DNA from: Candidatus Magasanikbacteria bacterium RIFCSPHIGHO2_01_FULL_33_34
GTDB taxonomy: Bacteria > Patescibacteriota > Patescibacteriia > Magasanikbacterales > UBA922
Reading direction: 5' to 3'
DNA length: 64,000 nt
Assembly: GCA_001782825.1 (NCBI GenBank)
Contig: MFPS01000008.1
Span: 9,012 to 73,011, forward strand
In this document: in pieces, positions 3-14,678 of the stretch
Layout of the letters: the number at the start of each line of letters is the position of its first letter
Numbering within the stretch: the stretch's first letter is position 1
Translations under genes and position numbers: made by a program
Notes under the pieces: generated by a model
What the model was told of the DNA's origin: nothing
The model's input: the letters and a program-made list of their open reading frames with translations, nothing else
The model's database searches: none

Positions 3-1019
3 GTGACTGGGGCTATGATCTTGATCACAGAATATTATACATCTACTAAATATCATCCAGTAAAAAGCATAGCAGCTGCTTCAAAAACTGGTCATGGTAC
101 TAATGTGATTGCAGGTTTGGCAGTGGCAATGGAGTCAACTGCTTTGCCAATATTTGTGGTAGTGGCAGCAATGTTAGGTGCGCATACATTGGCTGGTATT
201 TATGGTATAGCAATCGCTGCGATGAGTATGCTTTCAATGGCTGGTATTATTGTGACTATTGATGCTTATGGTCCGATTACAGATAATGCTGGCGGAATTG
301 CCGAGATGGCTGGAATGGATGAAAGTGTTCGTGCTGTGACTGATCCATTGGATGCAGTAGGGAATACTACCAAAGCAGTTACCAAAGGTTATGCTATCGC
401 CTCAGCTGCTTTAGCAGCATTGGTATTGTTTGCTGATTTTACTTATAGTATTCCGGGTAGTTTTGAATTTTTGATAAACGATCCTAGAGTATTGGCAGGA
501 TTATTTATTGGTGGTTTGTTACCATATTATTTTGCAGCTTTGGCTATGCAAGCAGTCGGTAAAGCGGCTGGCTCTGTAGTAGAAGAAGTTAGAACTCAGT
601 TCAAGGAAAAACCAGGAATTATGCAGGGGACTGAAAAACCAGATTATGGTAGAACAGTAGATATAGTGACAAAAGCCGCTATCAAAGAAATGAGTCTGCC
701 AGCAGCAATCCCTGTAGTCGCTCCGATAGTGGTTGGTGTTTTACTTGGGGTACAAGCTTTGGGTGGTTTGCTTGTTGGTTCAATTATTACTGGTATTTTT
801 GTAGCAATTTCTATGACATCAGGTGGTGGAGCATGGGATAATGCCAAGAAATATATTGAAGAGGGTCATCATGGTGGCAAAGGTAGTTTTGCGCATCAAT
901 CAGCTGTGACTGGGGACACTGTCGGTGATCCATACAAAGATACAGCGGGTCCAGCCATTAATCCGATGATCAAGATTGTGAATATTGTGGCATTGCTGAT
1001 AGTGGCGTTGTTGGTATAA
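3..1019 (+). CDS. hppA: membrane-bound H+/Na+-translocating pyrophosphatase, C-terminal ~340 aa (5' end cut by window edge)
   Basis: ORF open to window start; polytopic Gly/Ala-rich membrane protein with V-PPase-type conserved segments ([35 protein letters not shown]); followed by hairpin+T-run. Confidence 0.85.
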
Positions 1020-1035
1020 AAAATAAAATTAAAGA

Positions 1036-1068
1036 AGTCCTGATGTTATTTTATCAGGACTTTTTTTA
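1036..1068 (+). terminator. rho-independent terminator after hppA
   Basis: AGTCCTGAT-8nt loop-ATCAGGACT followed by TTTTTTT. Confidence 0.7.
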
Positions 1069-1097
1069 TTGACAAAATATAAAAAAAATGATATTAA
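1069..1097 (+). promoter_or_regulatory. sigma70-like promoter (TTGACA-17nt-TATTAA) upstream of Nudix-like gene
   Basis: Consensus -35 hexamer and near-consensus -10 with 17-nt spacer read directly from sequence. Confidence 0.4.
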
Positions 1098-1171
1098 AAA
1101 AATGTACGTTTTAGACAGAGGTCTAAAGTAAGCGTACAAACCTAACCGCAGAGGCGGAAAGGAAAAGTAAA

Positions 1172-1897
1172 ATGAGAGACCAGAGGGAAGTACAGAGGAA
1201 AGAGTTCCTCGATCAAGTCAACAACATGTTGACTGAAAGAAACTTGAAGGCATTGCCGAAGCTTGGTGATGTTGACAAGGGTGAGATTGAACTCACGGCT
1301 GTCGAGGAAGTTCTCGATGGTATGAGTCGGTTTCACACGGACGTGCGTTTTAAGTGTATCTTTCCGGGCGGGGGCACCGGAAGTTTCCAGATACGTTGGA
1401 ACGCCAATAGTGCCGTGTCAGATGGTGCGGTTTTTTTGCCAATTATCAATGGGAAAGTCGCTGTGGTAAAGCAGTGGCGTCCGACCATGGGTAGGTGGAC
1501 ATATGAGGTACCTCGGGGGTTTGGTGAAGCGTTGGATAAAGCAAAGGTCAATGGCCAGTACGGTCAGATCAAAATTGCGGATCTTCCGCTTAACAACCTC
1601 TTTCGGGAGCTTGGAGAGGAAGTCAAGAAGGGTGCAGAGGTATCCTCGATTGTTTTCCTTGGCAATGTCGCCGAAAACACTGGTACACATACTGCTATGC
1701 CATCCTTCTACATTGTCAACTTCAAGGTTGACGAAGACGTTCTAGAGCAGAGACTCAAGGGTGCTGAAGAAGGCATCAAGGTTCAGTTGTGGACCATCGA
1801 CAAAGTTAAGAGTGAACTTGGTGGCAAGTTGAATGACTTGCATACCATCGGGGCAGTAGCCCTGGCGCTCAAGCATATGTCCGAGCTTCCGCGCTAG
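1172..1897 (+). CDS. Nudix-family hydrolase-like protein (divergent; Nudix helix RELGEEV preceded by GRWTYEVPRGFGE)
   Basis: 241-aa ORF with strong G-rich SD (GGAAAGGAAAAG); Nudix-box-like motif with an unusual insertion between the G-x-E loop and the REx2EE helix; markedly higher GC and GC-ending codons than surrounding genes. Confidence 0.5.
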   Translation: MRDQREVQRKEFLDQVNNMLTERNLKALPKLGDVDKGEIELTAVEEVLDGMSRFHTDVRFKCIFPGGGTGSFQIRWNANSAVSDGAVFLPIINGKVAVVKQWRPTMGRWTYEVPRGFGEALDKAKVNGQYGQIKIADLPLNNLFRELGEEVKKGAEVSSIVFLGNVAENTGTHTAMPSFYIVNFKVDEDVLEQRLKGAEEGIKVQLWTIDKVKSELGGKLNDLHTIGAVALALKHMSELPR

Positions 1898-1925
1898 TCG
1901 CGAGCAGGATAATGCCAGTTGTATC

Positions 1926-1951
1926 GGGCACCGTTTCGGCGGTGCTTTTTT
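1926..1951 (+). terminator. rho-independent terminator after Nudix-like gene
   Basis: GGGCACCG-loop-CGGTGC followed by TTTTTT. Confidence 0.65.
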
Positions 1952-1964
1952 AATTAAATTAAAG

Positions 1965-2004
1965 AAGGCCTCTATGCGAGTAGCACGAGGCCTTTGTGTT
2001 TTTT
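1965..2004. terminator. second hairpin (GGCCTC...GAGGCC), probable bidirectional terminator between Nudix-like and nhaA
   Basis: 6-bp GC stem with 14-nt loop, T-rich tract on + side (TTTGTGTTTTTT); lies just 3' of the convergent nhaA stop. Confidence 0.5.
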
Positions 2005-2031
2005 CCTCCTTGTCGAACTTTGTTTGTCCGA

Positions 2032-3213
2032 CTAGTTGTTTTTTTTGATCCGCAGAACTTTGCCTGCGATAATGGATACGATTGCCATGCCGGCAGAGAA
2101 CAGCGCGCCCATTTTGGCAGAGCCAGTAATGGTGGCGTCTGTAAAAGCTACTCCAGCCACAAACAAGGCTACTGTTAGTCCAATGGATGCAATCATGCCT
2201 GCAACTACCAAGTCAATCTTGCTCATACCTGTTGGCAATGGTGAACCTAGGAGTTTATCTGCAATCAATGATAACAGAGTGACTCCAAAGGTCTTGCCAA
2301 TTACCAGAGAGATCAGGACTGCCCAAGTAGCACTCCCAACATTTGAGAAGACAACCCCAGCATTCGCCAGCCCAAATGCGAATAGGCCGATGTCAACTGG
2401 AAGTTTGAACACCTCCTCAAATCTGTTTAGAGTATCTTTGTGGCCTTTGCCATGTTCAGCGAATAGTCCTTCATCTCGCTTGGGCCCCGGCATGCAGGGC
2501 ACAATCGGTACAAGGGCTAAGGCTGGATGAAGTCCAGCGAAGTACAGACCTATCCAACTGATAACTCCCGCTACTAGGTGGGGTTTGAAGCTGTTGTTAT
2601 TGTTTTTGATTGCGATGTGTTTGAACATCACAACAGAGAATAAAGCTACAGCTACTAGTATTAGGTAGTTTACTTGCACAGGGTGCTTGGGGTCTGGATA
2701 GAAAATAGCAATAATACCCAGTCCAATGGCATCGTCAGCGATTGCCAAAAGCAGTAGGAAACTCACTGCTGGGTGTTTGGAGCCAAATACTACTTTAGCG
2801 ACCAACCATGCGATTGCTATGTCTGTAGCAGTCGGGATACCCCAACCATTTTTTATGCTTATGTCGCCATTGAAGTGAACATAAGTAAAGTACACACAAA
2901 TTGGGCCAACAACTCCACCAAGGGTAGCAAGAAGCGGGTTCACCGCTTTCTTTATCGGATTTAGATTGCCTCCAGGCAGAAATGACTCAGTAATTTCTTT
3001 GGTAGCAATGCCAAAGAAAAATACCATAAAGATGTCATTTACTAGAAAGTGAAAATTGAATTCACCGCCAAATGGTGACCAGTGTATAAAGTTATAATAA
3101 CTATTGTGACCAAGATTGGCCCACAACAATGCTGTTACTACACCAGTAATCAATGGAATGGCAAACTGTTGAAGGGTTGCTATTGGATTTCTTTTGGACA
3201 TCTTCTCCCCCAA
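2032..3213 (-). CDS. nhaA: Na+/H+ antiporter NhaA
   Basis: 393-aa polytopic membrane protein with NhaA-type conserved blocks (e.g. GGNLNPIKKAVNPLLATLGGVVGPI, ALFSVVMFK); GC-rich relative to neighbours; strong SD (GGGGGAGAAG) unlike native genes. Confidence 0.85.
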   Translation of the reverse strand: MGEKMSKRNPIATLQQFAIPLITGVVTALLWANLGHNSYYNFIHWSPFGGEFNFHFLVNDIFMVFFFGIATKEITESFLPGGNLNPIKKAVNPLLATLGGVVGPICVYFTYVHFNGDISIKNGWGIPTATDIAIAWLVAKVVFGSKHPAVSFLLLLAIADDAIGLGIIAIFYPDPKHPVQVNYLILVAVALFSVVMFKHIAIKNNNNSFKPHLVAGVISWIGLYFAGLHPALALVPIVPCMPGPKRDEGLFAEHGKGHKDTLNRFEEVFKLPVDIGLFAFGLANAGVVFSNVGSATWAVLISLVIGKTFGVTLLSLIADKLLGSPLPTGMSKIDLVVAGMIASIGLTVALFVAGVAFTDATITGSAKMGALFSAGMAIVSIIAGKVLRIKKNN

Positions 3214-3315
3214 TGGTTGTTTGTTTTTCTATGCGCAAAATGTGCATAGTCGCATATTCTAACAATAAATTATTAAGTTTGTCAAGATATAAAAAGATTT
3301 TTATTATTGATTTAG

Positions 3316-3344
3316 TTGACTTTTTGGCTTAATTAATATATAAT
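3316..3344 (+). promoter_or_regulatory. sigma70-like promoter (TTGACT-17nt-TATAAT) for infB
   Basis: Near-perfect -35/-10 hexamers with 17-nt spacer ~30 nt upstream of infB ATG. Confidence 0.5.
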
Positions 3345-3373
3345 CTACTCATTAAATTATTATTCATATATTC

Positions 3374-5395
3374 ATGAATGTAACTGAATTGGCTAGACAG
3401 CTTAGAATAAATACAAAACAAATGTTGGAAATATTACCTGCACATGGTTTTGATATTGGTGCAAAAGCGGTAAAAATTGATGATAGGGTTGCCAATCAGA
3501 TAATGCGTCAATGGAAATACATTAAAAAAGCTATTGAGGATAAAGAAAAAAAAGCCAAGGCAGAACAATTGTTGAAAGAAAAGGAAATGCGTAAACAAGT
3601 TGGCGAGTCTGTTGCTTTGCCTAGTTTGATTACTGTTCGTGATTTTGCCAGTAGATTAAATTTACCAGTAACACAATTGATTACTGAACTTATGAAAAAT
3701 GGCATTTTAGCCAATCAAAATCAAAATATTGATTATGATACCGCGGCTATTATGGCAGAGGAACTTGGTTTTACAGTTTTGAAAGAAACTGGGGATAGAA
3801 TGGTAGAAGACGACAATAGTCATGTATTGGAAAATGCATTACAAAAAGGTGAAAATAAAACTAGAAGAGCTCCGGTAGTTGTAGTTATGGGACACGTCGA
3901 TCATGGTAAAACTAAGTTATTGGATAGTATAAGACAAACAAATATAGTTGATACTGAATCAGGTGGAATTACTCAACATATAGGCGCATATCAAACTATT
4001 TGGAAAGATCCAAAAACAAAAGAAGAAAGACCAATGACTTTTATTGATACTCCTGGTCATGAAGCTTTTACAGTGATGAGATCTCGTGGGGCTAAAATTG
4101 CTGATTTGGCTATTTTGGTAGTGGCAGCCGATGATAGTGTAAAACCACAAACAGAAGAAGTTATTCAGATTATAAAAGCGGCTAAGCTTCCGTTTGTAGT
4201 GGCTATAAACAAAATTGACAAAGAAACAGCCGATATCCAACGAGTAAAAACAGAGCTTTCACAACGTGATGTCTTGGCAGAAGAATGGGGTGGATCAGTC
4301 CCAATGGTAGAGATTTCTGCCAAAGAAAAATTAAATATTGATAAATTACTTGATGTATTACTTTTGGTTTCTGATATGAATGCCGATAGTATGCAAGCAG
4401 ATACGAGTATTCCAGCTGTTGGTACTGTGATTGAGTCGCATGTTGACAAAGGTACTGGGCCGGTAACCACTATATTGGTTCAAGCAGGTACCCTTAAAAA
4501 AGGTGATCCACTGGTATTGAATGGTGAAATATATGGCAAAGTTAGAGCCATGCATGATTATAAAGGTGAAGAAATTTTAGAAGCAGGACCAAGTGTGCCA
4601 GTGCAAATCATTGGATTTAAAGTGGCCCCTGAAGTTGGTGATATAATGGATGTTGGTCTTGCAAAAGGTGCTCAAAAAATTGATGCAAAACAAAAATATT
4701 CACAACAAACCGGTGCAGAAAATAGGTCTGCCTTTCAATCAAATGAAAGTGAAGAAGATGGAAAAAATAAAAAATATTTAAATATTGTTATAAAAGCCGA
4801 TGTATTGGGTTCACTTGAAGCTATTATTGGTGCTCTTGAGAATATTCAGCATGAAGAAGTGCGGGTAAAGATTATTGGTAAAGGCCTTGGAAATATAAAT
4901 GAAAATGATATTGCCAAAGTTGAAAGTTCTGGTGGCGCGATTCTGGCTTTTAAGGTTGGGGCAACACCAATGGCAGGGGAGAGTATTCGTGACAAGAAAA
5001 TACAATTTTTAAAGTTTGACATAATTTATGATTTGATTGATTGGGCAAAAGACGAGTTAGAAAAAATGTTGGAAAAAGAATTGGTGACAACAGAAATTGG
5101 CAATTTAAAAGTATTAGCAATTTTTAGAACTGATAAAGGCGCTATGACATTGGGTGGTAGAGTGGAGATAGGTAAAGTTATAAAAGATGCTTTGGTCAGA
5201 ATAAAAAGAGAAAAAGAAATTGTTGGTATAGGCAAGGTATCAAAATTACAAACTGGACAATCAGAAACAAAACAAGTGCCACAGGGATCAGAATGTGGTC
5301 TGCGTATTGAAAGTAAAACAAAAATAGAAGCGGGTGATATTTTAGAATTTTATACAGAAGAACTTGTGGTTAGAAAAATGAATTTAAAAAAATAA
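3374..5395 (+). CDS. infB: translation initiation factor IF-2
   Basis: G-domain motifs GHVDHGKT, DTPGHEAF, NKID; IF-2 N-terminal segment and C-terminal beta-barrel domains; 673 aa. Confidence 0.95.
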   Translation: MNVTELARQLRINTKQMLEILPAHGFDIGAKAVKIDDRVANQIMRQWKYIKKAIEDKEKKAKAEQLLKEKEMRKQVGESVALPSLITVRDFASRLNLPVTQLITELMKNGILANQNQNIDYDTAAIMAEELGFTVLKETGDRMVEDDNSHVLENALQKGENKTRRAPVVVVMGHVDHGKTKLLDSIRQTNIVDTESGGITQHIGAYQTIWKDPKTKEERPMTFIDTPGHEAFTVMRSRGAKIADLAILVVAADDSVKPQTEEVIQIIKAAKLPFVVAINKIDKETADIQRVKTELSQRDVLAEEWGGSVPMVEISAKEKLNIDKLLDVLLLVSDMNADSMQADTSIPAVGTVIESHVDKGTGPVTTILVQAGTLKKGDPLVLNGEIYGKVRAMHDYKGEEILEAGPSVPVQIIGFKVAPEVGDIMDVGLAKGAQKIDAKQKYSQQTGAENRSAFQSNESEEDGKNKKYLNIVIKADVLGSLEAIIGALENIQHEEVRVKIIGKGLGNINENDIAKVESSGGAILAFKVGATPMAGESIRDKKIQFLKFDIIYDLIDWAKDELEKMLEKELVTTEIGNLKVLAIFRTDKGAMTLGGRVEIGKVIKDALVRIKREKEIVGIGKVSKLQTGQSETKQVPQGSECGLRIESKTKIEAGDILEFYTEELVVRKMNLKK

Positions 5396-5490
5396 TGTGT
5401 ATTATATTGGCTTGGCATAAGGGCTTGCTAAAATAATTCAGAAATAATATAATAATGAATGCTAAATCATTATTTTTTTAATTAAATAGT

Positions 5491-5814
5491 ATGAATGAAT
5501 TAAAGCTTACAGATGGAAATTTTGAGGGAGAGGTATTAAAGTCAGCAGTACCAGTATTGGTTGATTTTTGGGCACCATGGTGTGGTCCTTGTCAAATGAT
5601 GGGTCCTATTGTGGAAGAATTATCAAGTGAATATGACCAAAGTAAAATTAAAGTTGGTAAACTTGATGTTGATCAAAATCAAGCAGTAGCAGGAAAATAC
5701 CAAGTAATGAGTATTCCTACTTTTTTGATATTTAAAGGTGGAGAAGTGGTTGATAAAATGGTTGGTGGAGTACAGAAAGAAAAATTAAAGGAAATGATGA
5801 ATAAATACGTTTAA
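5491..5814 (+). CDS. trxA: thioredoxin
   Basis: 107 aa with WAPWCGPC active site. Confidence 0.9.
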   Translation: MNELKLTDGNFEGEVLKSAVPVLVDFWAPWCGPCQMMGPIVEELSSEYDQSKIKVGKLDVDQNQAVAGKYQVMSIPTFLIFKGGEVVDKMVGGVQKEKLKEMMNKYV

Positions 5815-5823
5815 TGTAAATTT

Positions 5824-7092
5824 ATGTCAAATCCTTTTAGTAATGCAATGAGACAGTTGGATAAGGCTGCTGATATCATCAATTTGGATAAAAATATTCA
5901 TGAAATATTGAAGTCACCTGATAGGGTAGTTTCTATTTCTATACCTGTAAAAATGGATAATGGGGATATAAAAGTATTTGCAGGGTTTCGTAGTCAATAC
6001 AATAATACATTAGGTGTGTATAAAGGTGGTATTAGATATCATCATGGAGTAACTATTGATGAAGTAAAAGCTTTATCATTTTGGATGGCAATCAAATGTG
6101 CGGTTGTAAATATTCCAATGGGCGGTGCTAAAGGCGGGGTTATAGTTTCTCCAAAAGAATTATCTGAAGGTGAGATTGAAAGATTGTCTCGTGGTTATAT
6201 ACAAAAAATATGGCGATTAATTGGATCAGATAAAGATGTGCCAGCGCCGGATGTATATACAACTCCACAGATTATGGCTTTGATGCGCGATGAATATGAA
6301 AAATTAGTCGGACATACAGATCCAGGTGTTATTACTGGTAAACCGATTGAAAATGGTGGTTCTGAGGGTAGGTCTTTTTCAACTGCGCAAGGTGGGGTAT
6401 ATTGTGTAGATGAATTAGCCAAGAAAATGAATTGGGTTTCAGAGAATACAACGATTGCAATTCAAGGGTATGGTAATGCCGGGTCTCATATGGCTCGTAT
6501 TTTACATGGATTAGGTTATAAAATTGTGGCGATTAGTGATTCAAAAGGTGGTGTCTATAATGAAGATGGGATTGATCCAGCCAAAGCTGAACAAATAAAA
6601 AAATCTGGTGGACGACTTGGTTGTTATTGCGTGGGTACGGTTTGTGATATTGTTGATATCAGTACCGATGGCCCATGTAGAGCCATTAGTAATGATGAGA
6701 TTCTTGAATTGGATGTTGATATTTTAATTCCAGCTGCGCTTGAGAATGTTATTACTATTGAAAATGCTGACAAAATAAAAGCAAAGACAATCGTAGAGCT
6801 TGCAAATGGACCAACTACGCCAGAAGCCGATGAAATTTTGAATAAAAATGGTGTGGTAATTGTTCCAGATGTATTGGCAAATGCTGGTGGTGTAACAGTA
6901 AGTTATTTTGAATGGGATCAAAATGTAAAAGGTGAACATTGGACTGAAATGGAAGTTTTGAATAAGTTGGAAAAAATAATGAAAAATGCTTTTGATGATG
7001 TGTGGAGTATAAAAGAAAAATATAATATTGATATGAGAACATCTGCGTTTGTTTCGGCAGTTGAAAGAATTGCTAAAAAGATAAAAATTTAA
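5824..7092 (+). CDS. gdhA: NAD(P)-dependent glutamate dehydrogenase (Glu/Leu/Phe/Val dehydrogenase family)
   Basis: Catalytic lysine motif PMGGAKGG, Rossmann GYGNAGSH; 422 aa. Confidence 0.9.
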   Translation: MSNPFSNAMRQLDKAADIINLDKNIHEILKSPDRVVSISIPVKMDNGDIKVFAGFRSQYNNTLGVYKGGIRYHHGVTIDEVKALSFWMAIKCAVVNIPMGGAKGGVIVSPKELSEGEIERLSRGYIQKIWRLIGSDKDVPAPDVYTTPQIMALMRDEYEKLVGHTDPGVITGKPIENGGSEGRSFSTAQGGVYCVDELAKKMNWVSENTTIAIQGYGNAGSHMARILHGLGYKIVAISDSKGGVYNEDGIDPAKAEQIKKSGGRLGCYCVGTVCDIVDISTDGPCRAISNDEILELDVDILIPAALENVITIENADKIKAKTIVELANGPTTPEADEILNKNGVVIVPDVLANAGGVTVSYFEWDQNVKGEHWTEMEVLNKLEKIMKNAFDDVWSIKEKYNIDMRTSAFVSAVERIAKKIKI

Positions 7093-7099
7093 ATTTTAT

Positions 7100-7130
7100 T
7101 TAAAAAATAGTTTATTTAAACTATTTTTTA
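7100..7130. terminator. AT-rich perfect palindrome between convergent gdhA and sigma-factor gene (weak bidirectional terminator)
   Basis: AAAAAATAGTTTA-tt-TAAACTATTTTTT; overlaps stop codon of the minus-strand gene. Confidence 0.3.
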
Positions 7131-7739
7131 TTCCTCAAATATATTACGTAGTTTTTGTTTTATTCTAAAAATAATACTAGCTACTGTATTGCTTTTTATA
7201 CCTTCTTCTTGTGCTAGTTTAGCGACACTTTTCCCAGCCACTCTTCCTTTTATTATAGCCTGTTCTCTCTCGGTAAGAGTTTCTATTGCTTGATTTATTT
7301 TATCTCGTATTCTAGCTTCATCAATAGCATTATCAAATAGTTGATCATTATTTGGAATTGTGCTTGTATCTGGATAAATATTTTCCTTAAATTCTTCATA
7401 TTCTTTTTCTTTTGTTCTTTTTTCTTTTCTAAAAGTATCCATAATAGTATTATATGTAATTGAAAAAAGCCAAGATTTAAAGTTGACTTCATCTTTAAAT
7501 GTATCAAGTTTATTCCATACTTTTAGCCATGTACTTTGTAATATATCTTCAGTTTTTGATGGAGAATGTGTTTTTGATATTATAAAAGCATAAAGATCAC
7601 GATTGTATATATTGTATAGTTTTGTGAATGCTTTTTTATCTCCATTTTTTGCTTGTCCTATTAATTCCGTTATGTTCTCTTCTGATTCGCTTGGGTTTAT
7701 TTGTTTTTCTGGATTATATGTGATTTTTTCATTAGACAT
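7128..7739 (-). CDS. ECF-type RNA polymerase sigma-70 family factor
   Basis: Region 2 (YNRDLYAFIISKTHSPSKTEDILQSTWLKVW) and region 4 HTH (EREQAIIKGRVAGKSVAKLAQEEGIKSNTVASIIFRIKQKLR). Confidence 0.8.
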   Translation of the reverse strand: MSNEKITYNPEKQINPSESEENITELIGQAKNGDKKAFTKLYNIYNRDLYAFIISKTHSPSKTEDILQSTWLKVWNKLDTFKDEVNFKSWLFSITYNTIMDTFRKEKRTKEKEYEEFKENIYPDTSTIPNNDQLFDNAIDEARIRDKINQAIETLTEREQAIIKGRVAGKSVAKLAQEEGIKSNTVASIIFRIKQKLRNIFEE

Positions 7740-7840
7740 AAAAATAAATAATGATTTATATAATTAAATCATTATAAGGATATATTGTCAAAAAATTTAA
7801 CTTGATTCTTTCTAGCTATTTTGTTAATATAGGGTTTATT

Positions 7841-8602
7841 ATGCAAGATTTTTTGAAAGAGACAATCAGAGAAGCCGGGGGTATTGCCAAGGAATATTTT
7901 TATCAAGGAGTTGTTCATAGGATGAAAACTTCTTTGGGTGATTTGGTTACAGACGCTGATATTGCAGTCAGTAATTTTTTGATAGAAAAAATACATGAAA
8001 AGTATCCAGATCATCAAATTCATACAGAAGAAGAGGGCGATGATATAAATCCTGGAGCTCAATATGAGTGGGTACTTGATCCGATTGATGGTACGCGTAA
8101 TTTTGCCATGGGAATATCTTTTTGGTGTATTATGGTAGCCGTACTCAAAGATGGCGAATTGTATATGTCAGCTATATATAACCCTTTGGCAGATGAATTG
8201 TTTTTTGCTGAAGCAAATAAAGGGGCATTTATGAATGATAAAAAAATAAAAGTAAATGATGTTGATGTTTTGGATCATGGTAATGGTGTATTGATGCGTG
8301 GTATCAATACTGATCGTGAAGAAGAATATAAAAATATGTTAGCAAAAGTGTCGGTTGGTAGTAATATGTGGATGCTTAATTTTGGCACGATGTTGAGTTT
8401 GTGTCATTTGGCAATGGGTGGTATGGAATATTTTGCAGTTAATGTTGGTTTTGATCATGATTATTTGCCGGGAGTGTTAATTGCCAAAGAGGCTGGAGCA
8501 GTCGTGACTGATAGTCAGGGTGAACCATGGACTCGATATAAGCGTGATATAGTAGTATCAAATTCAAATTTACATTCAAAACTTTTAGAACTATTCAAAT
8601 AA
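7841..8602 (+). CDS. suhB: inositol monophosphatase family protein (SuhB-like)
   Basis: Motifs WVLDPIDGTRNF and metal-binding EEEGD; ATG at 7841 preferred over upstream in-frame ATG at 7802 (AGGG 9 nt upstream). Confidence 0.8.
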   Translation: MQDFLKETIREAGGIAKEYFYQGVVHRMKTSLGDLVTDADIAVSNFLIEKIHEKYPDHQIHTEEEGDDINPGAQYEWVLDPIDGTRNFAMGISFWCIMVAVLKDGELYMSAIYNPLADELFFAEANKGAFMNDKKIKVNDVDVLDHGNGVLMRGINTDREEEYKNMLAKVSVGSNMWMLNFGTMLSLCHLAMGGMEYFAVNVGFDHDYLPGVLIAKEAGAVVTDSQGEPWTRYKRDIVVSNSNLHSKLLELFK

Positions 8603-8603
8603 T

Positions 8604-11600
8604 ATGCAGGAATATAATCCAAATAAAATAGAATCAAAATGGCAAAAAGAATGGGAAAAAAACGGCCTTTATAAAACGCCAGAAGATGTTATTATAGAAA
8701 ATAAAATGTATATATTGCCACAATTGCCATATCCATCAGGATCTGGTTTGCATGTGGGTCATGCAGAAGTATATTCGGCATGTGATATATATGCGCGATA
8801 TCAGAGAATGCAAAAAAAGAAAGTTTTGCAAGTAATAGGCTGGGATAGTTTTGGATTGCCAGCAGAAAATTATGCAATAAAAAATAATGTGCACCCAAAA
8901 ATAAGTACAGACAAAGCCATTGATAATTTTAGGAGTCAAATTAAGTCATTGGGTATTTCTGTAGATTGGGATCGTGAAGTTGGGGCGCATAATCCTGATT
9001 ATTACAAATGGACACAGTGGTTTTTTTTGCTTATGTATAGACGTGGTCTTGCTTATCGTAAAAAACAAAGTGTCAATTGGTGCGATAGTTGTAAGACTGT
9101 GTTAGCAAATGAACAAGTGGTTGAAGGTCATTGTGAGCGTTGTGATACAGAAGTAGTCCAAAGAAAAATGGATCAATGGTTTTTGAAAATTACTGATTAT
9201 GCAGATCGGTTAGCAAAAGATTTGGATAAAGTAGATTGGCCAGCAGAAACAAAACGAAGACAAAGGCAATGGATAGGTCGGAGTGATGGGGCTGAGGTTG
9301 ATTTTAAAATCAAAGATTTTGATTATAAGATTTCAGTATTTACTACTCGTCCAGATACGCTTTTTGGGGCGACATATTTGGTATTGGCTCCAGAAGGTTT
9401 GATCGTGCAAGAATTAAGAGGGCAAGTAGAAAATTGGTTAGAGGTTGAAAAATATATTGATGAAACAAAAAAGAAAACAGAACTTAATCGTCAAACACAA
9501 AAAGAAAAAACTGGGGTAGAATTGAAGGGTATTAAAGCGATTAATCCGGTTAATGGAAAAGAGATGCCTATTTGGATTGCTGATTATGTTTTATCAACTT
9601 ATGGTACAGGGTCTATTATGGCAGTGCCGGCGCATGATGAGAGAGATTGGGAGTTTGCTAAGAAGTTTGGTTTGGAAATAAAAGTTGTCGTAATTCCGGT
9701 GATAGATAGTAGACCAGATGAATTGTTGAATGAAAAAATAAATTTTTATACAAATGAAACGTTACAACACGGCAGTTATTCTAAAGAAGGCTTATCAGTA
9801 AATTCCAATTTTTTAGATGGTTTAAAAAGTGAAGAAGCCAAAGAAAAAATGATAGCTTGGCTTGAAGAATATAATGTTGGCAAAAGAAAAGTCCAATTTA
9901 AACTTCGGGATTGGTCAGTGTCTCGCCAAAGGTTTTGGGGAGCTCCAATTCCAATGGTATTTAATGAAACAAGAAAAAACAAAAAATATGAATATATTTT
10001 TATTCATGGGTATGGTGGGGACAGTGAGTCAAATTATTTTCCAAAATTAAAAAAAGATTTAGAAGCAATTGGCCATACAGTGATTGCTTTTGATTTGCCA
10101 AATACGGAAAAGCCAAATATTTGTGAACAAATGCAGTTTTTGCTTGAAAATATTAGTATAAGTGAAAATACTGTTATTTTGGCACATAGTCTTGGTGGGG
10201 CTGTAGCCATGAAGATGTTAGAACATGAAAACAAAAAAGTTGCTAAAGTGATTTTTTCTGATTGTTTTTTTGAGCCAAAGTTTGCCGATGTTGCACGACC
10301 AGTTGTTGAGAGTAGCTGTGATTGGAATTTTGATTTTGAAAAATTAAAGACATTGTCAGAGGAGTTTGTAGTTGTTTTTGATTCTAATTGTCCGGTAATT
10401 CCTCGTGAACATAGTGAAAAGTTTGCCAAAAATTTGGATGCAAGAATAGTATTTGCGCGGGCTAATGGACCTCATTTTATGAGTATTCACGAACCAATAA
10501 TTTTAGAAGAGTCATTGGTCAATGGTTTAAAACCAGTTAAATTTGATGATTTGCCGGTGAAATTGCCTGATGATGTAGATTTCAAACCTACTGGACAATC
10601 TCCTTTGACATATTCAAAAGATTTTCAAAAAGGTATTGAAGATAAATATGGTTTGGGTTGGGAGAGAGAAGTGGATACACTGGATACGTTTATGTGTTCT
10701 AGTTGGTTTTATTATCGTTATCTTGATCCAAAAAATGATGATGAGTTCGCCTCAAGTATTGCCTTAAAAAAATGGATGCCAGTAGATTTTTATCTGGGTG
10801 GTGAGGAACATGTTAATGGACACTTATTGTATTCAAGGTTTTTCACCAAAGTTTTATTTGATGCTGGATATATTGATTTTGATGAACCATTTATGATGCA
10901 TAGGCATCAAGGTATGATTTTAGGTGAAGATAGCAAAAAAATGAGCAAACGTTGGTCAAATGTTATAAATCCATCTGATGTTGTAGATGAATTTGGAGCA
11001 GATACTTTTAGAGTATATGAGATGTTTATGGGTCCACTCGAACAAACTAAACCATGGAATACTGATGGTGTTCGTGGGGCGCGTAGATTTCTAGATAGAG
11101 TGTGGAATTTATACAAAAAAGTAAATTCTACAGAAAATTTAGAAGTTGAATACGATTCAATTCTTCACAAGACTATAAAAAAAGTTGGTGATGATTTGGC
11201 TACTTTTAGATTCAATACGGCCATTGCAAAGATGATGGAATTGACAAATGAATTTGTAAAAAGTGATAAAATTAGGCATACAGATTTTGAATTATTTTTA
11301 AAGATATTATCTCCATTTGCTCCACATATGACAGAAGAATTGTGGTCTGATATGGGTAATAAAAAATCAATATCATTAGAAGTTTGGCCTCAATATGATG
11401 AGAATAAAGTTATGGATAGCAAAATTATAGTGGTGGCGCAAGTAAATGGTAAAGTACGGGCAAGTTTTGAAGTGGATGTTGATATTTCAGAGAGTGATAT
11501 TAAAAAGATAGTGTTAGAAGATGCTGTTGTCAAAAAATGGTTAGCTGGCAAAGAGCCAAAGAAAGTAATTTATGTTAAGGGAAAGTTAGTATCAGTTGTA

Positions 11601-11606
11601 GTTTAG
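8604..11606 (+). CDS. leuS: leucyl-tRNA synthetase with inserted alpha/beta serine-hydrolase domain
   Basis: HIGH (HVGH), KMSKR, CP1 editing domain (TTRPDT, AVPAHDERDWEFA), WGAPIPMV and LPVKLPDDV motifs; ~190-codon in-frame insertion (9964-10545) with FIHGYGG / AHSLGG / FDSNCPVIP / NGPHF hydrolase motifs; 1000 aa versus ~800-860 typical. Confidence 0.95.
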   Translation: MQEYNPNKIESKWQKEWEKNGLYKTPEDVIIENKMYILPQLPYPSGSGLHVGHAEVYSACDIYARYQRMQKKKVLQVIGWDSFGLPAENYAIKNNVHPKISTDKAIDNFRSQIKSLGISVDWDREVGAHNPDYYKWTQWFFLLMYRRGLAYRKKQSVNWCDSCKTVLANEQVVEGHCERCDTEVVQRKMDQWFLKITDYADRLAKDLDKVDWPAETKRRQRQWIGRSDGAEVDFKIKDFDYKISVFTTRPDTLFGATYLVLAPEGLIVQELRGQVENWLEVEKYIDETKKKTELNRQTQKEKTGVELKGIKAINPVNGKEMPIWIADYVLSTYGTGSIMAVPAHDERDWEFAKKFGLEIKVVVIPVIDSRPDELLNEKINFYTNETLQHGSYSKEGLSVNSNFLDGLKSEEAKEKMIAWLEEYNVGKRKVQFKLRDWSVSRQRFWGAPIPMVFNETRKNKKYEYIFIHGYGGDSESNYFPKLKKDLEAIGHTVIAFDLPNTEKPNICEQMQFLLENISISENTVILAHSLGGAVAMKMLEHENKKVAKVIFSDCFFEPKFADVARPVVESSCDWNFDFEKLKTLSEEFVVVFDSNCPVIPREHSEKFAKNLDARIVFARANGPHFMSIHEPIILEESLVNGLKPVKFDDLPVKLPDDVDFKPTGQSPLTYSKDFQKGIEDKYGLGWEREVDTLDTFMCSSWFYYRYLDPKNDDEFASSIALKKWMPVDFYLGGEEHVNGHLLYSRFFTKVLFDAGYIDFDEPFMMHRHQGMILGEDSKKMSKRWSNVINPSDVVDEFGADTFRVYEMFMGPLEQTKPWNTDGVRGARRFLDRVWNLYKKVNSTENLEVEYDSILHKTIKKVGDDLATFRFNTAIAKMMELTNEFVKSDKIRHTDFELFLKILSPFAPHMTEELWSDMGNKKSISLEVWPQYDENKVMDSKIIVVAQVNGKVRASFEVDVDISESDIKKIVLEDAVVKKWLAGKEPKKVIYVKGKLVSVVV

Positions 11607-11608
11607 TT

Positions 11609-13060
11609 ATGAATTACAATATAATAAATTCCAAAAGCAAAACGTTTATAGCGTTTTGTTTTTCTTTTCTTATTGGTGTTGTAATAGCCTCAATATTTAA
11701 ATTTAATTTTGATTATGTAGTCTGGGGTTTTGTGTTTGTAATTTTGATTGGATTATTAGTTGCATTTAGAAAAAGTAAAAGTAAAGTATTTATTTTTGTA
11801 AATGTACTATTGATTATACTAGGAATTTGTAGATATAATTTTGCCTTGCCAAATGATAATGAAAAATATATTAGCCATTATAATGGCAATAAGTTTAAAT
11901 TTGTTGGTTATATTAGCACTGAGCCAGATGTACGAATTGTTGATATTCGTTATGTAGTTCAAAGTGATGATTTAAAAGGCAAAGTCTATTTTAAAAGTAC
12001 TTTATATCCAAGATATGATTATGGAGATAGAGTTGAGATTGAATGTGATTTGGTAACACCAGAGGCATTTGATGATTTTAGGTATGATATGTATTTGGCA
12101 AATATGGGTGTATTTTCATTGTGTGTGAATCCTTATGTATCCAGGTTAGATGGATATGGTGGTAGTATATTTTTTCGTGAAATAATGAAGTATAAAAATA
12201 TTTTTGCTGGGCAAATAAATAAGTTATGGCATGAGCCATATGCTAGTTTTATGGCTGGACTTTTGTATGGTTATCGTGGTGGTTTGGGAGATTTGCAGGA
12301 ACATTTTAATAGGACTGGTATTACTCATATCGTGGCAATTTCTGGATATAATATTTCAATTATTTCAATAATGTTGATTACAATATTTGTTCGATTATGG
12401 ATTCCAAGAAAAAAAGCATTTTGGATTATTATTTTTTGTATTTTTTTGTTTGTAATATTTGCTGGGGCAAGCGGGTCTGTTGTCCGAGCTGGGATTATGG
12501 GGTCAATAGTTCTTTTGTCCAAGTATTTGGGTAGGAAAAATAGAATGGCGAATACTATTATTTTTACAGCCGTATTGATGACAATTTATAATCCATTTGT
12601 ATTGGTATGGGATATTGGATTTCAATTGTCATTTTTGGCTACAATTGGGTTGGTTTATTTGTTGCCAATTTTAGAAGATAAATTTAAAAAATTTCCTAAT
12701 TTGTTTTCAATAAAGACATTATTTTTATCTACTATTTCGGCTATTATACTGACATTTCCATTGACATTGTATCAGTTTGGTAGATTTTCAATCGTAGCTC
12801 CAGTCGTTAATATATTGGTTTTGTGGTTGATTCCATTTATAATGTTATTTGGTTTTATTAGTGTTTTATTGAGTTTTCTTTTTTATCCAATTGGGCAAAT
12901 GTTCGCTTGGCTTACTTTTTTAGGTTTGAAATATATAACATTTATTACAGTTTGGTTTTCTACTTTTGAATATTCTTCTGTTGAATTTCAAGTACCATTA
13001 TTTTTTATCTTTGTTATTTATTTTGTAATCTTTTTTATTATTTATAAATTAAAAAAATGA
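11609..13060 (+). CDS. comEC: ComEC/Rec2 DNA-internalisation protein, N-terminal membrane (competence) domain only
   Basis: 483-aa polytopic protein with ComEC competence-domain architecture (N-terminal DUF4131-like region, TGITHIVAISGYNISII block); the MBL domain is encoded separately downstream. Confidence 0.75.
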   Translation: MNYNIINSKSKTFIAFCFSFLIGVVIASIFKFNFDYVVWGFVFVILIGLLVAFRKSKSKVFIFVNVLLIILGICRYNFALPNDNEKYISHYNGNKFKFVGYISTEPDVRIVDIRYVVQSDDLKGKVYFKSTLYPRYDYGDRVEIECDLVTPEAFDDFRYDMYLANMGVFSLCVNPYVSRLDGYGGSIFFREIMKYKNIFAGQINKLWHEPYASFMAGLLYGYRGGLGDLQEHFNRTGITHIVAISGYNISIISIMLITIFVRLWIPRKKAFWIIIFCIFLFVIFAGASGSVVRAGIMGSIVLLSKYLGRKNRMANTIIFTAVLMTIYNPFVLVWDIGFQLSFLATIGLVYLLPILEDKFKKFPNLFSIKTLFLSTISAIILTFPLTLYQFGRFSIVAPVVNILVLWLIPFIMLFGFISVLLSFLFYPIGQMFAWLTFLGLKYITFITVWFSTFEYSSVEFQVPLFFIFVIYFVIFFIIYKLKK

Positions 13061-13088
13061 TGATTGACTAATCATTATTTTTTTGATA
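13058..13088 (+). terminator. terminator after comEC N-terminal gene
   Basis: ATGATTgactAATCAT hairpin followed by T-rich tract. Confidence 0.45.
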
Positions 13089-13120
13089 TTTTAATATGAA
13101 CTATTTATTAGGAGGTTATT

Positions 13121-13654
13121 TTGTCCAGACAACGCATATTTAGGCATAATCAATTGTCTTTGGGGTTAACAGATCATAATGTTAAGGTAGGTGTACGAGA
13201 TAATTCAGGAGAAACTATTGTTATAAGTAATCCAACATTACTTTCAGAAGTTTGTCAAAATTATACTCAAATGCCATTTAGGCTTGGTTATAAATATCCC
13301 ATAGATGAGATACTAGATTGTTGGCTAGAAATTTTTGATGCTAGTAGTAATAGCATTGGTCGGATTTATAGGAATGGTATCTTCTATTTTATGGAGATAG
13401 ATACACTCAAAGAAGCTTTGGGGTGGCTTATTTTGACTAGTCTTGGTAGAGAAGTAGAGGTGGATACACTATATAATTTAAACAATGTGATTAGAGTACT
13501 TCGATCTAAAATCAATAATGGTAATTATTTAACAGATGAATACTTACTCAGTATATTAAATTATAGTTGTAGATATAAAGTTGATCTATCTGTTGCTCGT
13601 GATCTGTTTATTATGGTTAATAATAAAGAGAATGATAAAATTTGTGATAAGTAG
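13121..13654 (+). CDS. hypothetical protein (TTG start) inserted between the two ComEC gene halves
   Basis: 177-aa ORF; strong SD AGGAGG 5 nt upstream of TTG; own downstream terminator; no recognisable motif. Confidence 0.55.
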   Translation: MSRQRIFRHNQLSLGLTDHNVKVGVRDNSGETIVISNPTLLSEVCQNYTQMPFRLGYKYPIDEILDCWLEIFDASSNSIGRIYRNGIFYFMEIDTLKEALGWLILTSLGREVEVDTLYNLNNVIRVLRSKINNGNYLTDEYLLSILNYSCRYKVDLSVARDLFIMVNNKENDKICDK

Positions 13655-13658
13655 TTTT

Positions 13659-13700
13659 GGTCGCCATATGTTAAATATTCATATGGTCGACCTTTTTAAT
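13659..13700 (+). terminator. rho-independent terminator
   Basis: GGTCGCCATATG-9nt-CATATGGTCGACC (12-bp stem, one bulge) followed by TTTTTAATTTT. Confidence 0.6.
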
Positions 13701-13769
13701 TTTGACAACTATGGTTTATTGTACAAGTATTTTGGAGTATAATGTGTATAATATCTTTAATAAATATTC

Positions 13770-14678
13770 ATGAAAAAAACATTTTTTATAGTTTTGGCAT
13801 TTTTAGTAGTAGTTATTGTAATGTTGATTTATATAAAAATTGATAAAAAAACTATTATTAAGAGTGTGGAAAATACTAGTATTTCTCCACAGGATAAAAA
13901 TGAATTTAAAAGTTATTTGAAAGTAAGCTTTTTGGATGTTGGGCAGGGTGATGCGAGTATGATTGAGTGGCCTAGTGGCAAGCAAATGCTGGTGGATTGT
14001 GGCAGGGATGCGAGTGTTTTGTCTGGTCTGGGAGATTTTATGCCTTTTTATGATAAATATATAGATTATTTATTGATCACTCATCCAGATTATGATCATT
14101 TTGGTGGATGTATTGATGTTTTGAAGAGATTTGATATCGGAGAGATTGTATATAATGGTTTAGTTGCGGATAATAAGGCTTGGGATTATTTTTGGGATTT
14201 GGCGATTTCTGAAGGTGCAACTATAACTCGCATTAGTAAATTGGATACATGGAAGATTGAAAATTCAGAGTTGAAATTTTTGTACCCAGATTCAGATATT
14301 TCTATTAAGGGTATAAATAATAATGATAGTTCAATTGTGTTTCTTTTATCATTTGGAGAAATGGATATTTTGTTTACAGGGGATGCAGAAGAAGGGTTGG
14401 AAGAATATTTGGTAACTACATATGATAATATTCTTGATTCAGAAATATTAAAAGTTGGACATCATGGTAGCGGGACATCATCAATTACAAAGTTTATTGA
14501 TGCTGTTAAACCAAAATATTCTGTGATTTCTGTTGGTGAAGATAATAATTATGGACATCCTTCATTGAGAGTATTAAAACGATTAGAAAGGGTTCAAAGT
14601 GAAGTTTTTAGGACTGATTTATTGGGTAATATTAGCTTTAATATTTATGAAAATCGTATTGAAAGAGTGTTTGAATGA
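13770..14678 (+). CDS. ComEC-type metallo-beta-lactamase domain protein (C-terminal half of ComEC)
   Basis: N-terminal TM anchor; SFLDVGQGDASMIEWPSGKQMLVDCG, HPDYDHFGG, TGDAE, KVGHHGS motifs typical of the ComEC MBL nuclease domain. Confidence 0.8.
   Translation: MKKTFFIVLAFLVVVIVMLIYIKIDKKTIIKSVENTSISPQDKNEFKSYLKVSFLDVGQGDASMIEWPSGKQMLVDCGRDASVLSGLGDFMPFYDKYIDYLLITHPDYDHFGGCIDVLKRFDIGEIVYNGLVADNKAWDYFWDLAISEGATITRISKLDTWKIENSELKFLYPDSDISIKGINNNDSSIVFLLSFGEMDILFTGDAEEGLEEYLVTTYDNILDSEILKVGHHGSGTSSITKFIDAVKPKYSVISVGEDNNYGHPSLRVLKRLERVQSEVFRTDLLGNISFNIYENRIERVFE

Follow-up and report, generated by a model that had tools for sequence, protein, structure and literature searches.

In a 64,000-nt stretch of a Candidatus Magasanikbacteria genome (contig MFPS01000008.1; hereafter the window, with coordinates numbered from its first position), two GC-rich genes lie tail to tail between hppA and infB. 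One, gene X, encodes a divergent Nudix-fold protein and the other an NhaA-family Na+/H+ antiporter. They are probably two foreign cassettes that this low-GC (~32%) genome acquired independently, in a slot whose contents vary among relatives. In the series of events that we propose, NhaA would be the older tenant, recurrent in several Magasanikbacteria lineages, and the slot would have received it more than once. X would have come second, in the ancestor that the window organism shares with its relative L001 (L-numbers denote loci of relatives or homologues fetched for comparison), and may have arrived as a self-contained ~0.93 kb cassette with a sigma-70-type promoter, a 68-nt two-hairpin leader, a Shine-Dalgarno (SD) site, the coding sequence and a terminator. 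Its predicted landing site lies between the hppA stop codon and a terminator that hppA formerly shared with NhaA. Both genes would have come from high-GC donors, and at the split between the lineages of the window and L001 their GC content at third codon positions (GC3) would have been ~0.8. The horizontal transfer itself is ordinary biology, if unusually well resolved, and it illustrates how what looks like one island by composition can go back to two events that differ in age. What is new is the divergent Nudix subfamily together with the structured, mobile leader dedicated to it.

The composition of both genes departs from a background with a low median GC of ~0.32 (1-kb windows). In 300-nt windows, GC is 0.44-0.51 over positions ~1200-3000 versus ~0.29-0.39 from 3000 on. 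GC3 reaches 0.562 in X (1172-1897, plus strand, 241 residues) and 0.431 in NhaA (2032-3201, minus strand, 389 residues, start codon ATG 3199-3201), as compared to a mean of ~0.22 and a maximum of 0.315 in the remaining 49 open reading frames (ORFs). Synonymous codon choice, scored as a leave-one-out log-likelihood from which amino-acid composition is removed, placed X (z = -8.3) and NhaA (z = -5.9) lowest among 51 genes. The first-pass annotation of this DNA had described both genes as GC-rich with foreign codon usage, and these values bear it out. The flanking genes have native GC3. The 3' part of hppA on the left (3-1019, plus strand), which encodes a membrane H+/Na+ pyrophosphatase (PF03030, E = 3e-153) 93% identical to its L001 orthologue, has a raised total GC (0.42); since its GC3 is native (0.27), the excess is due to codon positions 1 and 2. 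On the right, infB (3374-5395, plus strand; GC3 0.21) encodes an initiation factor IF-2 that is 100% identical to Candidatus Magasanikbacteria IF-2; trx and gdh belong to the same flank in the ORF list for 0-6 kb.

X and NhaA also have strong SD sites. The X site is GGAAAGGAAAAG at 1156-1167, and the NhaA site is GGGGGAGAAG, the reverse complement of 3202-3211, which adjoins the start codon and contains the SD GGGGGAG (reverse complement of 3205-3211, minus strand). Their duplexes with the anti-SD have energies of -7.2 (X) and -8.4 (NhaA) kcal/mol against a native-gene median of +0.5 kcal/mol, in line with the earlier remark that the native genes mostly lack such sites. Indeed, duplexes of -4.5 kcal/mol or lower were found for 10% of native genes versus 12% of random 22-mers. 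This implies that native genes mostly start translation independently of SD. The exceptions with a strong SD among the native starts (50 starts surveyed) are at 13121 (TAGGAGG) and 63065 (AAGGGGG). Among Parcubacteria, loss of the anti-SD is reported to be frequent, with the motif recognizable in just 48% of 16S rRNAs (PMC9297842), and the poverty of native SD sites in the window fits this. The 64-kb window has no rRNA gene.

An abrupt change of composition in metagenome-derived sequence is typical of chimeras, in which assembly or binning joins DNA from a GC-richer organism to, in this case, a Magasanikbacteria scaffold. However, the GC-rich patch is not an assembly chimera to judge from an independent ENA assembly (L158), which has equal junctions and 99.975% identity across window positions 292-8447. 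NCBI and Logan assemblies of another species (L001, L002) likewise have this arrangement and these junctions, with flanking intergenic signals that are shared and conserved. We therefore regard a chimera as practically ruled out.

A graded series of relatives demonstrates that the gap between the conserved core genes hppA and infB is a slot with variable contents. L001, the closest by IF-2 identity to the window (84.1%), carries X followed by NhaA on the minus strand. The slot of L031 (81%) contains two small hypothetical ORFs and that of L033 (77%) a single small ORF homologous to one of the two, and both loci lack X and NhaA. By contrast with these, NhaA is present and X absent in L037 (75.8%; NhaA alone, 58 nt from hppA), L034 (75%; NhaA preceded by an unrelated gene for a Cys-rich repeat protein), L035 (74%; NhaA) and L036 (69%; NhaA, with a soluble pyrophosphatase in place of hppA). 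The slot NhaA is oriented away from infB in six lineages, down to 69% IF-2 identity. In L036, the gene in hppA's place (6442-6972) encodes a soluble inorganic pyrophosphatase (PF00719) and sits beside the same methyltransferase gene. In L034, the gene at X's position (6034-7077) was considered as a relative of X and ruled out because its 347-residue product has no similarity to X. This protein combines an N-terminal membrane segment with dozens of ~8-residue Cys repeats (GDCS/TxLxG...) and has no match in Pfam.

The first-pass annotation had read X and NhaA as one two-gene island, acquired recently in a single event from a single higher-GC donor. The two genes are indeed adjacent, GC-rich and equipped with SD sites, and they occur together in both the window and L001. 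However, L037 has NhaA of the same clade at the same site without X, NhaA also occurs without X in L034, L035 and L036, and none of 23 other X loci has X beside NhaA. Furthermore, the two genes differ in the phyla of their nearest relatives (Obscuribacterales and Candidate Phyla Radiation (CPR) bacteria for X; Bdellovibrionota and Myxococcota for NhaA) and their GC3 is unequal (0.56 vs 0.43). The L037 arrangement, the lack of NhaA beside X elsewhere and the different relatives point to two events, and a single island is very improbable. The recent date does not hold either, given the saturated synonymous divergence from L001 described below. What does stand of that claim is an origin outside this low-GC genome, from higher-GC sources: composition and codon usage point to it, as do the SD sites, the phyletic distribution and the trees.

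The intergenic signals are consistent with separate arrivals. As described in the first-pass annotation, terminator hairpins bracket the genes: the hppA intrinsic terminator (AAGTCCTGAT/ATCAGGACTT and a T-run, 1035-1069, hairpin at 1035-1062), the X intrinsic terminator (GGGCACCG-TTTC-GGCGGTGCTT and a T-run, 1926-1953, hairpin at 1926-1947, plus strand), which is conserved in L001, and the hairpin that ends NhaA (AAGGCCTC...GAGGCCTT, 1965-1994). The latter serves the minus strand and was read directly from the sequence, its 14-nt loop being longer than the 8 nt that the terminator scan covers. L037 has a single bidirectional hairpin between hppA and NhaA. In the junction alignment, its stem resembles the hppA-proximal hairpin of the window and its downstream flank (TTTGTGTTTTTTCCTCC) is orthologous to that of the NhaA-proximal hairpin at 1965-1994. 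This dual correspondence suggests that X inserted between hppA and a terminator once common to hppA and NhaA. The inserted unit would span ~1042 to 1951 and comprise promoter, leader, X and terminator.

The NhaA product matches PF06965 over its full length (E = 2.8e-55, profile positions 11-368 of 374), in agreement with the first-pass identification. Its NCBIfam score (126.7 bits) is below the TIGR00773 equivalog cut-off of 254, as for a divergent member, and we thus use the family-level name only. The translation contains the motif LLLLAIADDAIGLGIIA (AIADDAIG), whose paired aspartates would correspond to the ion-binding D163/D164 of E. coli NhaA. The nearest homologues outside the slot clade are from Bdellovibrionales and Myxococcota (60-64% identity), and sequence comparison places the window NhaA in a branch common with Bdellovibrionota and Myxococcota. 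Upstream of the gene, on the minus strand, a predicted promoter agrees with 11 of 12 consensus positions (-10 TAGAAT at 3261-3256 preceded by TG, 18-nt spacer, -35 TTGACA at 3285-3280). It is followed by a leader hairpin (CTATGC...GCATAG, 3229-3249, minus strand; L001 counterpart CTATGCtcaaaaGCATAG) that has no match in Rfam. L001 preserves both this leader and the promoter, and a strong SD precedes each of the six slot NhaA genes.

The NhaA proteins of the window, L001 and L037 form one clade in 200 of 200 bootstraps, and L034 groups with them in 152. This grouping and the common orientation in six lineages are what one would expect if NhaA had descended vertically from an ancestral Magasanikbacteria slot gene, had simply been lost in L031 and L033, and had not been transferred a second time. 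However, the L036 protein joins the others in only 5 of 200 bootstraps. Furthermore, the NhaA identity between window and L037 (73.2%) is about that between window and L001 (73.8%), despite IF-2 identities of 75.8% and 84.1%, respectively. In the IF-2 tree, L031 nests with the window and L001 (200/200 bootstraps) and L037 falls outside the host clade (window, L001, L031, L032). NhaA does not, therefore, track the host tree, because L031, which nests inside, has no NhaA and L037, which lies outside, is equally close. A GC3 of 0.43-0.46 next to flanks of 0.22-0.28 would also be hard to keep so deep in the lineage if the gene were native. Vertical descent of NhaA is thus unlikely, though it is the least improbable of the alternatives that we weighed, and repeated acquisition is the explanation that we favor.

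Comparison with L001 also dates the two genes. GC3 in L001 (0.57 for X and 0.46 for NhaA) exceeds the background as much as it does in the window. Synonymous divergence between the two loci is saturated, with an NG86 synonymous distance (dS) of 0.95-1.9 in the flanking genes and a proportion of synonymous differences (pS) of 0.73-0.75 in X and NhaA. The same arrangement and GC excess at saturated dS argue that the acquisition was not recent. The first-pass annotation would have taken GC-rich orthologues at this locus in all relatives as a sign of ancient, selected composition. L001 has them, but L031 and L033 lack both genes, so the acquisition is old but lineage-specific and not ancestral to all relatives. 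The corresponding proportions of nonsynonymous differences in the two genes are 0.11 and 0.16, and this purifying selection indicates that the genes are in use. We applied a two-state amelioration model to third codon positions at conserved residues. It yields a native decay factor (e^-lt) of 0.39, and the modelled GC3 at the window-L001 split is ~0.75-0.80 for NhaA and ~0.82 for X, the latter in agreement with the 0.81-0.95 of X in candidate donor-type genomes. Under this model, X and NhaA would have lost roughly half to two-thirds of their GC3 excess in parallel since the split. Foreign GC and SD sites can thus outlast saturating synonymous divergence in a host whose genes skip SD.

The persistence of high GC3 can also be read differently, as the mark of long-standing residents whose composition is locally maintained, by GC-biased gene conversion or codon and mRNA selection, and is no trace of foreign origin. 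Slot tenants are richer in GC3 than their flanks in eight relatives, small ORFs (h137, h97 and h96) included, and this holds wherever the GC background is low or intermediate. For example, GC3 is 0.73 versus ~0.3 for the L036 NhaA and 0.67-0.69 versus 0.43 for the L031 slot ORFs; the L037 NhaA (0.63 in a background of 0.54-0.60) is not an outlier. In addition, although dS is saturated, the GC3 of X is still 0.56-0.57 in two lineages, above what native decay would leave, and the gene ranks first in GC3 in 8 of 25 X loci, even in high-GC hosts. On the other hand, no other sampled Magasanikbacteria carry X, whose family is at home in other phyla, and neither gene is present in L031 or L033. The NhaA tree disagrees with that of the host, the SD sites are of donor type, as is the leader that was transferred along with X, and hppA and infB have native GC3 only a few hundred bases away. 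Local maintenance in place of foreign origin is, for these reasons, rather improbable.

Several observations touch the composition of the slot and its surroundings. Small ORFs whose GC3 is strongly raised relative to their flanks (0.61-0.69) lie near hppA in L031 (8910-9818), L033 (8074-8364) and L001 (7051-7347), and the 97- and 96-residue ORFs are homologous (E = 3e-37). By composition, all occupants of the slot and its vicinity look foreign. Genomic GC differs widely inside the Magasanikbacteria group at conserved syntenic genes: GC3 of the IF-2 gene runs from 0.21-0.25 (window, L001 and L034) through 0.43-0.49 (L031 and L033) to 0.54 (L037).

A number of points weigh against two independent foreign acquisitions, or limit the detail in which they can be reconstructed. 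The amelioration model is crude, and the native decay rate would require an impossible starting GC3 of 1.10 for X; either the decay of X has been slower than that of its neighbours, or its GC is maintained in some way. Alongside foreign origin, a recombination hotspot with biased gene conversion could add to the GC3 of the slot. The trees are neighbour-joining trees from simple distances and limited sampling, and the preference for a gain of X in the ancestor of the window and L001 over a loss in L037 rests on parsimony and composition. The X sister group has a support of 38%, and the search for a donor was without outcome. The insertion has left few traces. A 20-nt direct repeat surrounds the X cassette (AATAAAATTAAAGAAGTCCT at 1022-1041, overlapping the 5' arm of the hppA terminator, and AATTAAATTAAAGAAGGCCT at 1952-1971, both on the plus strand), with copies that agree at 18 of 20 positions; across the 64 kb, AATWAAATTAAAGAAGKCCT matches exactly at two places, whereas 0.24 matches with up to 3 mismatches would be expected. 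However, L001 has the repeat in a much weaker and poorly conserved form, which makes it suggestive only, with little information on the insertion mechanism. No integrase, transposase or phage gene was found: beyond hppA, X, NhaA and the infB-trx-gdh flank, each of which is annotated by Pfam or synteny, the ORFs of 0-6 kb include no candidate mobility gene. The 64-kb window has no tRNA.

Gene X has no match by sequence alone in Pfam (E <= 0.1), NCBIfam or a phmmer search of the PDB, and this blank annotation made structure prediction and a profile search necessary. The AlphaFold model, built from a 33-sequence alignment (predicted local distance difference test, pLDDT, 79.8), has the alpha/beta/alpha sandwich of the Nudix fold. 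The profile search retrieved 442 representatives. Seven of ten distant ones pass PF00293 and an eighth is 0.1 bit under the 21.1-bit cut-off, which links the X family to NUDIX. X itself fails PF00293, and none of 54 family members has a precomputed Pfam domain. The canonical Nudix box is G-x5-E-x7-REUxEE-x-GU. Bridging relatives carry it (for example, P0310 has G-x5-E-x7-RELREETGL), and X departs from its 23-residue spacing with G116-x5-D122-x22-R145ELGEE150-x3-GA. The first-pass annotation had described a Nudix-like protein whose box is interrupted by ~20 residues; fold and interruption are as described, and the insertion is shorter, at ~15 residues. It coincides with a low-confidence loop (119-134) and is itself partly conserved (G128, G131 and D137-L-P-L). 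The 33 sequences show no variation at R145, E146, L147 or G148 and hardly any at E149 and E150. The conservation of this catalytic REx2EE core makes it likely that X is enzymatically active. The X cassette thus defines an uncharacterised Nudix subfamily that Pfam misses, with a conserved insertion inside the catalytic box.

The X family comprises ~54 clusters, mostly from Candidatus Obscuribacterales/Melainabacteria, and also occurs in single Saccharimonadia, Parcubacteria and Doudnabacteria genomes. Host genomes have a GC of 42-66%, in which X is compositionally ordinary. We found no relatives of X in viral contigs. The high-GC hosts in which X tops the GC3 of its locus include L003 (0.95 vs 0.80) and L020 (0.87 vs 0.71); either frequent recent transfer or something that favors GC-ending codons would explain such a rank. 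The L003 genome (62% GC) also holds the closest outside relative of X, and there the gene lies among genes for an NTP-transferase, RmlC, RmlD and epimerases (8720-14264). This nucleotide-sugar neighborhood weakly favors a nucleoside diphosphate (NDP)-sugar as the substrate.

Upstream of X we identified a predicted promoter on the plus strand at 1069-1097 (-35 TTGACA at 1069-1074, a 17-nt spacer ending in TG at 1089-1090, -10 TATTAA at 1092-1097). It was read directly from the sequence, since the promoter scan skipped its -10 hexamer ending in A, and is conserved in L001 (TTGACA-17-TATAAA). Downstream of the putative transcription start is a 68-nt leader (1104-1171, plus strand) with two hairpins. 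The first, P1, has an outer stem (1104-1108/1133-1137) and an inner stem (1110-1116/1121-1127) closed by an AGAG loop (1117-1120). The second, P2, is CCGC-AGAG-GCGG (1146-1157) and adjoins the purine-rich SD (1158-1167). Comparison of the upstream regions of the X loci brought out a common element, a hairpin NNGC-NGAG-GCNN located 8-17 nt before the ATG and adjoining a purine-rich SD. A second AGAG-loop hairpin usually lies ~40-60 nt upstream, and the loops have an invariant GC-NGAG-GC.

The fold is well supported. The folding z is -4.3 in both the window and L001, and P1 has compensatory changes between the two (GTACG/CGTAC vs GTGCG/CGCAC; AGAC/GTCT vs AGGC/GCCT). In a 20-sequence MAFFT alignment, 83% of the cells in the leader stems pair. 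Shuffles give 68%, with none of 500 as high as the alignment, and slid controls stay at or below 46%. Both sides vary in 10 of the 13 base pairs. RNAalifold independently recovers both hairpins. Over 593 kb of loci, the covariance model detected X-upstream sites only (31-62 bits; next best 16 bits). From 465 kb of metagenome loci selected by pattern it picked three sites, each of them upstream of X, and it also detected two untrained examples (L159 and L103, 34 bits each). The ~26 examples are spread across phyla; X copies from Saccharimonadia and Doudnabacteria have no leader. Two further ideas were rejected. A leader regulon beyond X found no backing in a metagenome pattern scan of 80 loci, where the three true leaders were all upstream of X and borderline cases were coding repeats. 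A lower helix that would occlude the SD appears in minimum-free-energy folds of most of 21 leaders but is not significant against controls: complementarity of the upstream tract to the SD, compared with random 14-mers of the same loci, gave a Fisher p of 0.12 and a median percentile of 0.36.

The occurrence of the leader in several phyla and only upstream of X indicates that it evidently moved with the gene, and it could serve as a marker for tracing X gene transfer. The leaders of the window and 11 other X loci have no match at gathering score among the Rfam 15 models, which include ykkC, the PyrR site and nhaA-associated motifs. By this comparison the leader matches no described family and appears to be a previously undescribed structured RNA. 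It is possible, and we propose it tentatively, that it represents a new class of cis-regulatory RNA dedicated to the X family, functioning as a small riboswitch that responds to the substrate or product of X or as an autoregulatory operator bound by an X dimer, in a self-regulating promoter-leader-gene-terminator unit that is mobile across phyla. Proteins of the Nudix fold family are typically dimeric. Twin identical loops in front of a gene from a dimer-forming family hint at autoregulation through a protein-bound operator, where one subunit of a presumably dimeric X could bind to each hairpin. One small protein and one 68-nt RNA make a testable pair for RNA-level regulation of Nudix enzymes.

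Outside the slot, the window also encodes a leucyl-tRNA synthetase (8604-11606, plus strand, 1000 residues) with an alpha/beta-hydrolase/Ser_hydrolase domain at residues 465-622, after the editing domain. The inserted hydrolase domain is also present in the enzymes of L001, L031, L032 and L036, whereas that of L033 has 812 residues and no insert.

The known proteins closest to X are the E. coli Nudix enzymes NudF and NudE, human NUDT5, the Bdellovibrio NDP-sugar hydrolase (5c7q) and Deinococcus DR2204 (2w4e). With NudF/NUDT5-type enzymes as its nearest structural neighbors and an N-terminal domain before the Nudix domain, the X model suggests an enzyme of the ADP-ribose/NDP-sugar pyrophosphatase type. 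However, X has 22 rather than 7 residues between box position 6 and RE, Asp for Glu at box position 6, a box that ends in EE-x3-G-A instead of EE-x-G-U, and an extra N-terminal helix (residues 2-22). A proline ~15-16 residues after the box is a signature of the NudF/NUDT5 type. X lacks it: the bridging relatives have T-P-D/N-T-G and the X family A-E-N-S/T-G (A-E-N-T-G in X). The NhaA of the window resembles E. coli NhaA in length, paired aspartates and full-length PF06965 match, but it scores under the equivalog cut-off and sits in a CPR genome at a variable slot.

For the leader, the ykkC subtype 2c riboswitches, which control NUDIX hydrolase genes in response to nucleoside diphosphates (PMC7266159), are a precedent for RNA-level control by a structured leader directly upstream of a Nudix hydrolase gene. 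The X leader is, in contrast, much smaller, consists of two simple hairpins with C-AGAG-G loops and no evident ligand pocket, and does not match ykkC in sequence or structure. Protein-bound hairpin operators in 5' leaders, such as PyrR binding loops and the GGA hairpins of CsrA, provide a lead: they too are short hairpins with a conserved purine-rich loop, present twice and near the SD. However, the Rfam models that include the PyrR site do not match the X leader, and its NGAG loop closed by C-G differs from the GGA motif of CsrA.

As a whole, the locus has the deviant composition and variable presence of a classical genomic island but not the integrase or transposase, tRNA target and clear repeats. 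The graded relatives document, in streamlined CPR genomes, a core-flanked slot refilled repeatedly by single-gene cassettes. Like integration hotspots and genomic islets, this slot has conserved core flanks and contents of deviant composition that vary among relatives; unlike them, it takes up one gene at a time, in cassettes that bring their own promoter and terminator.

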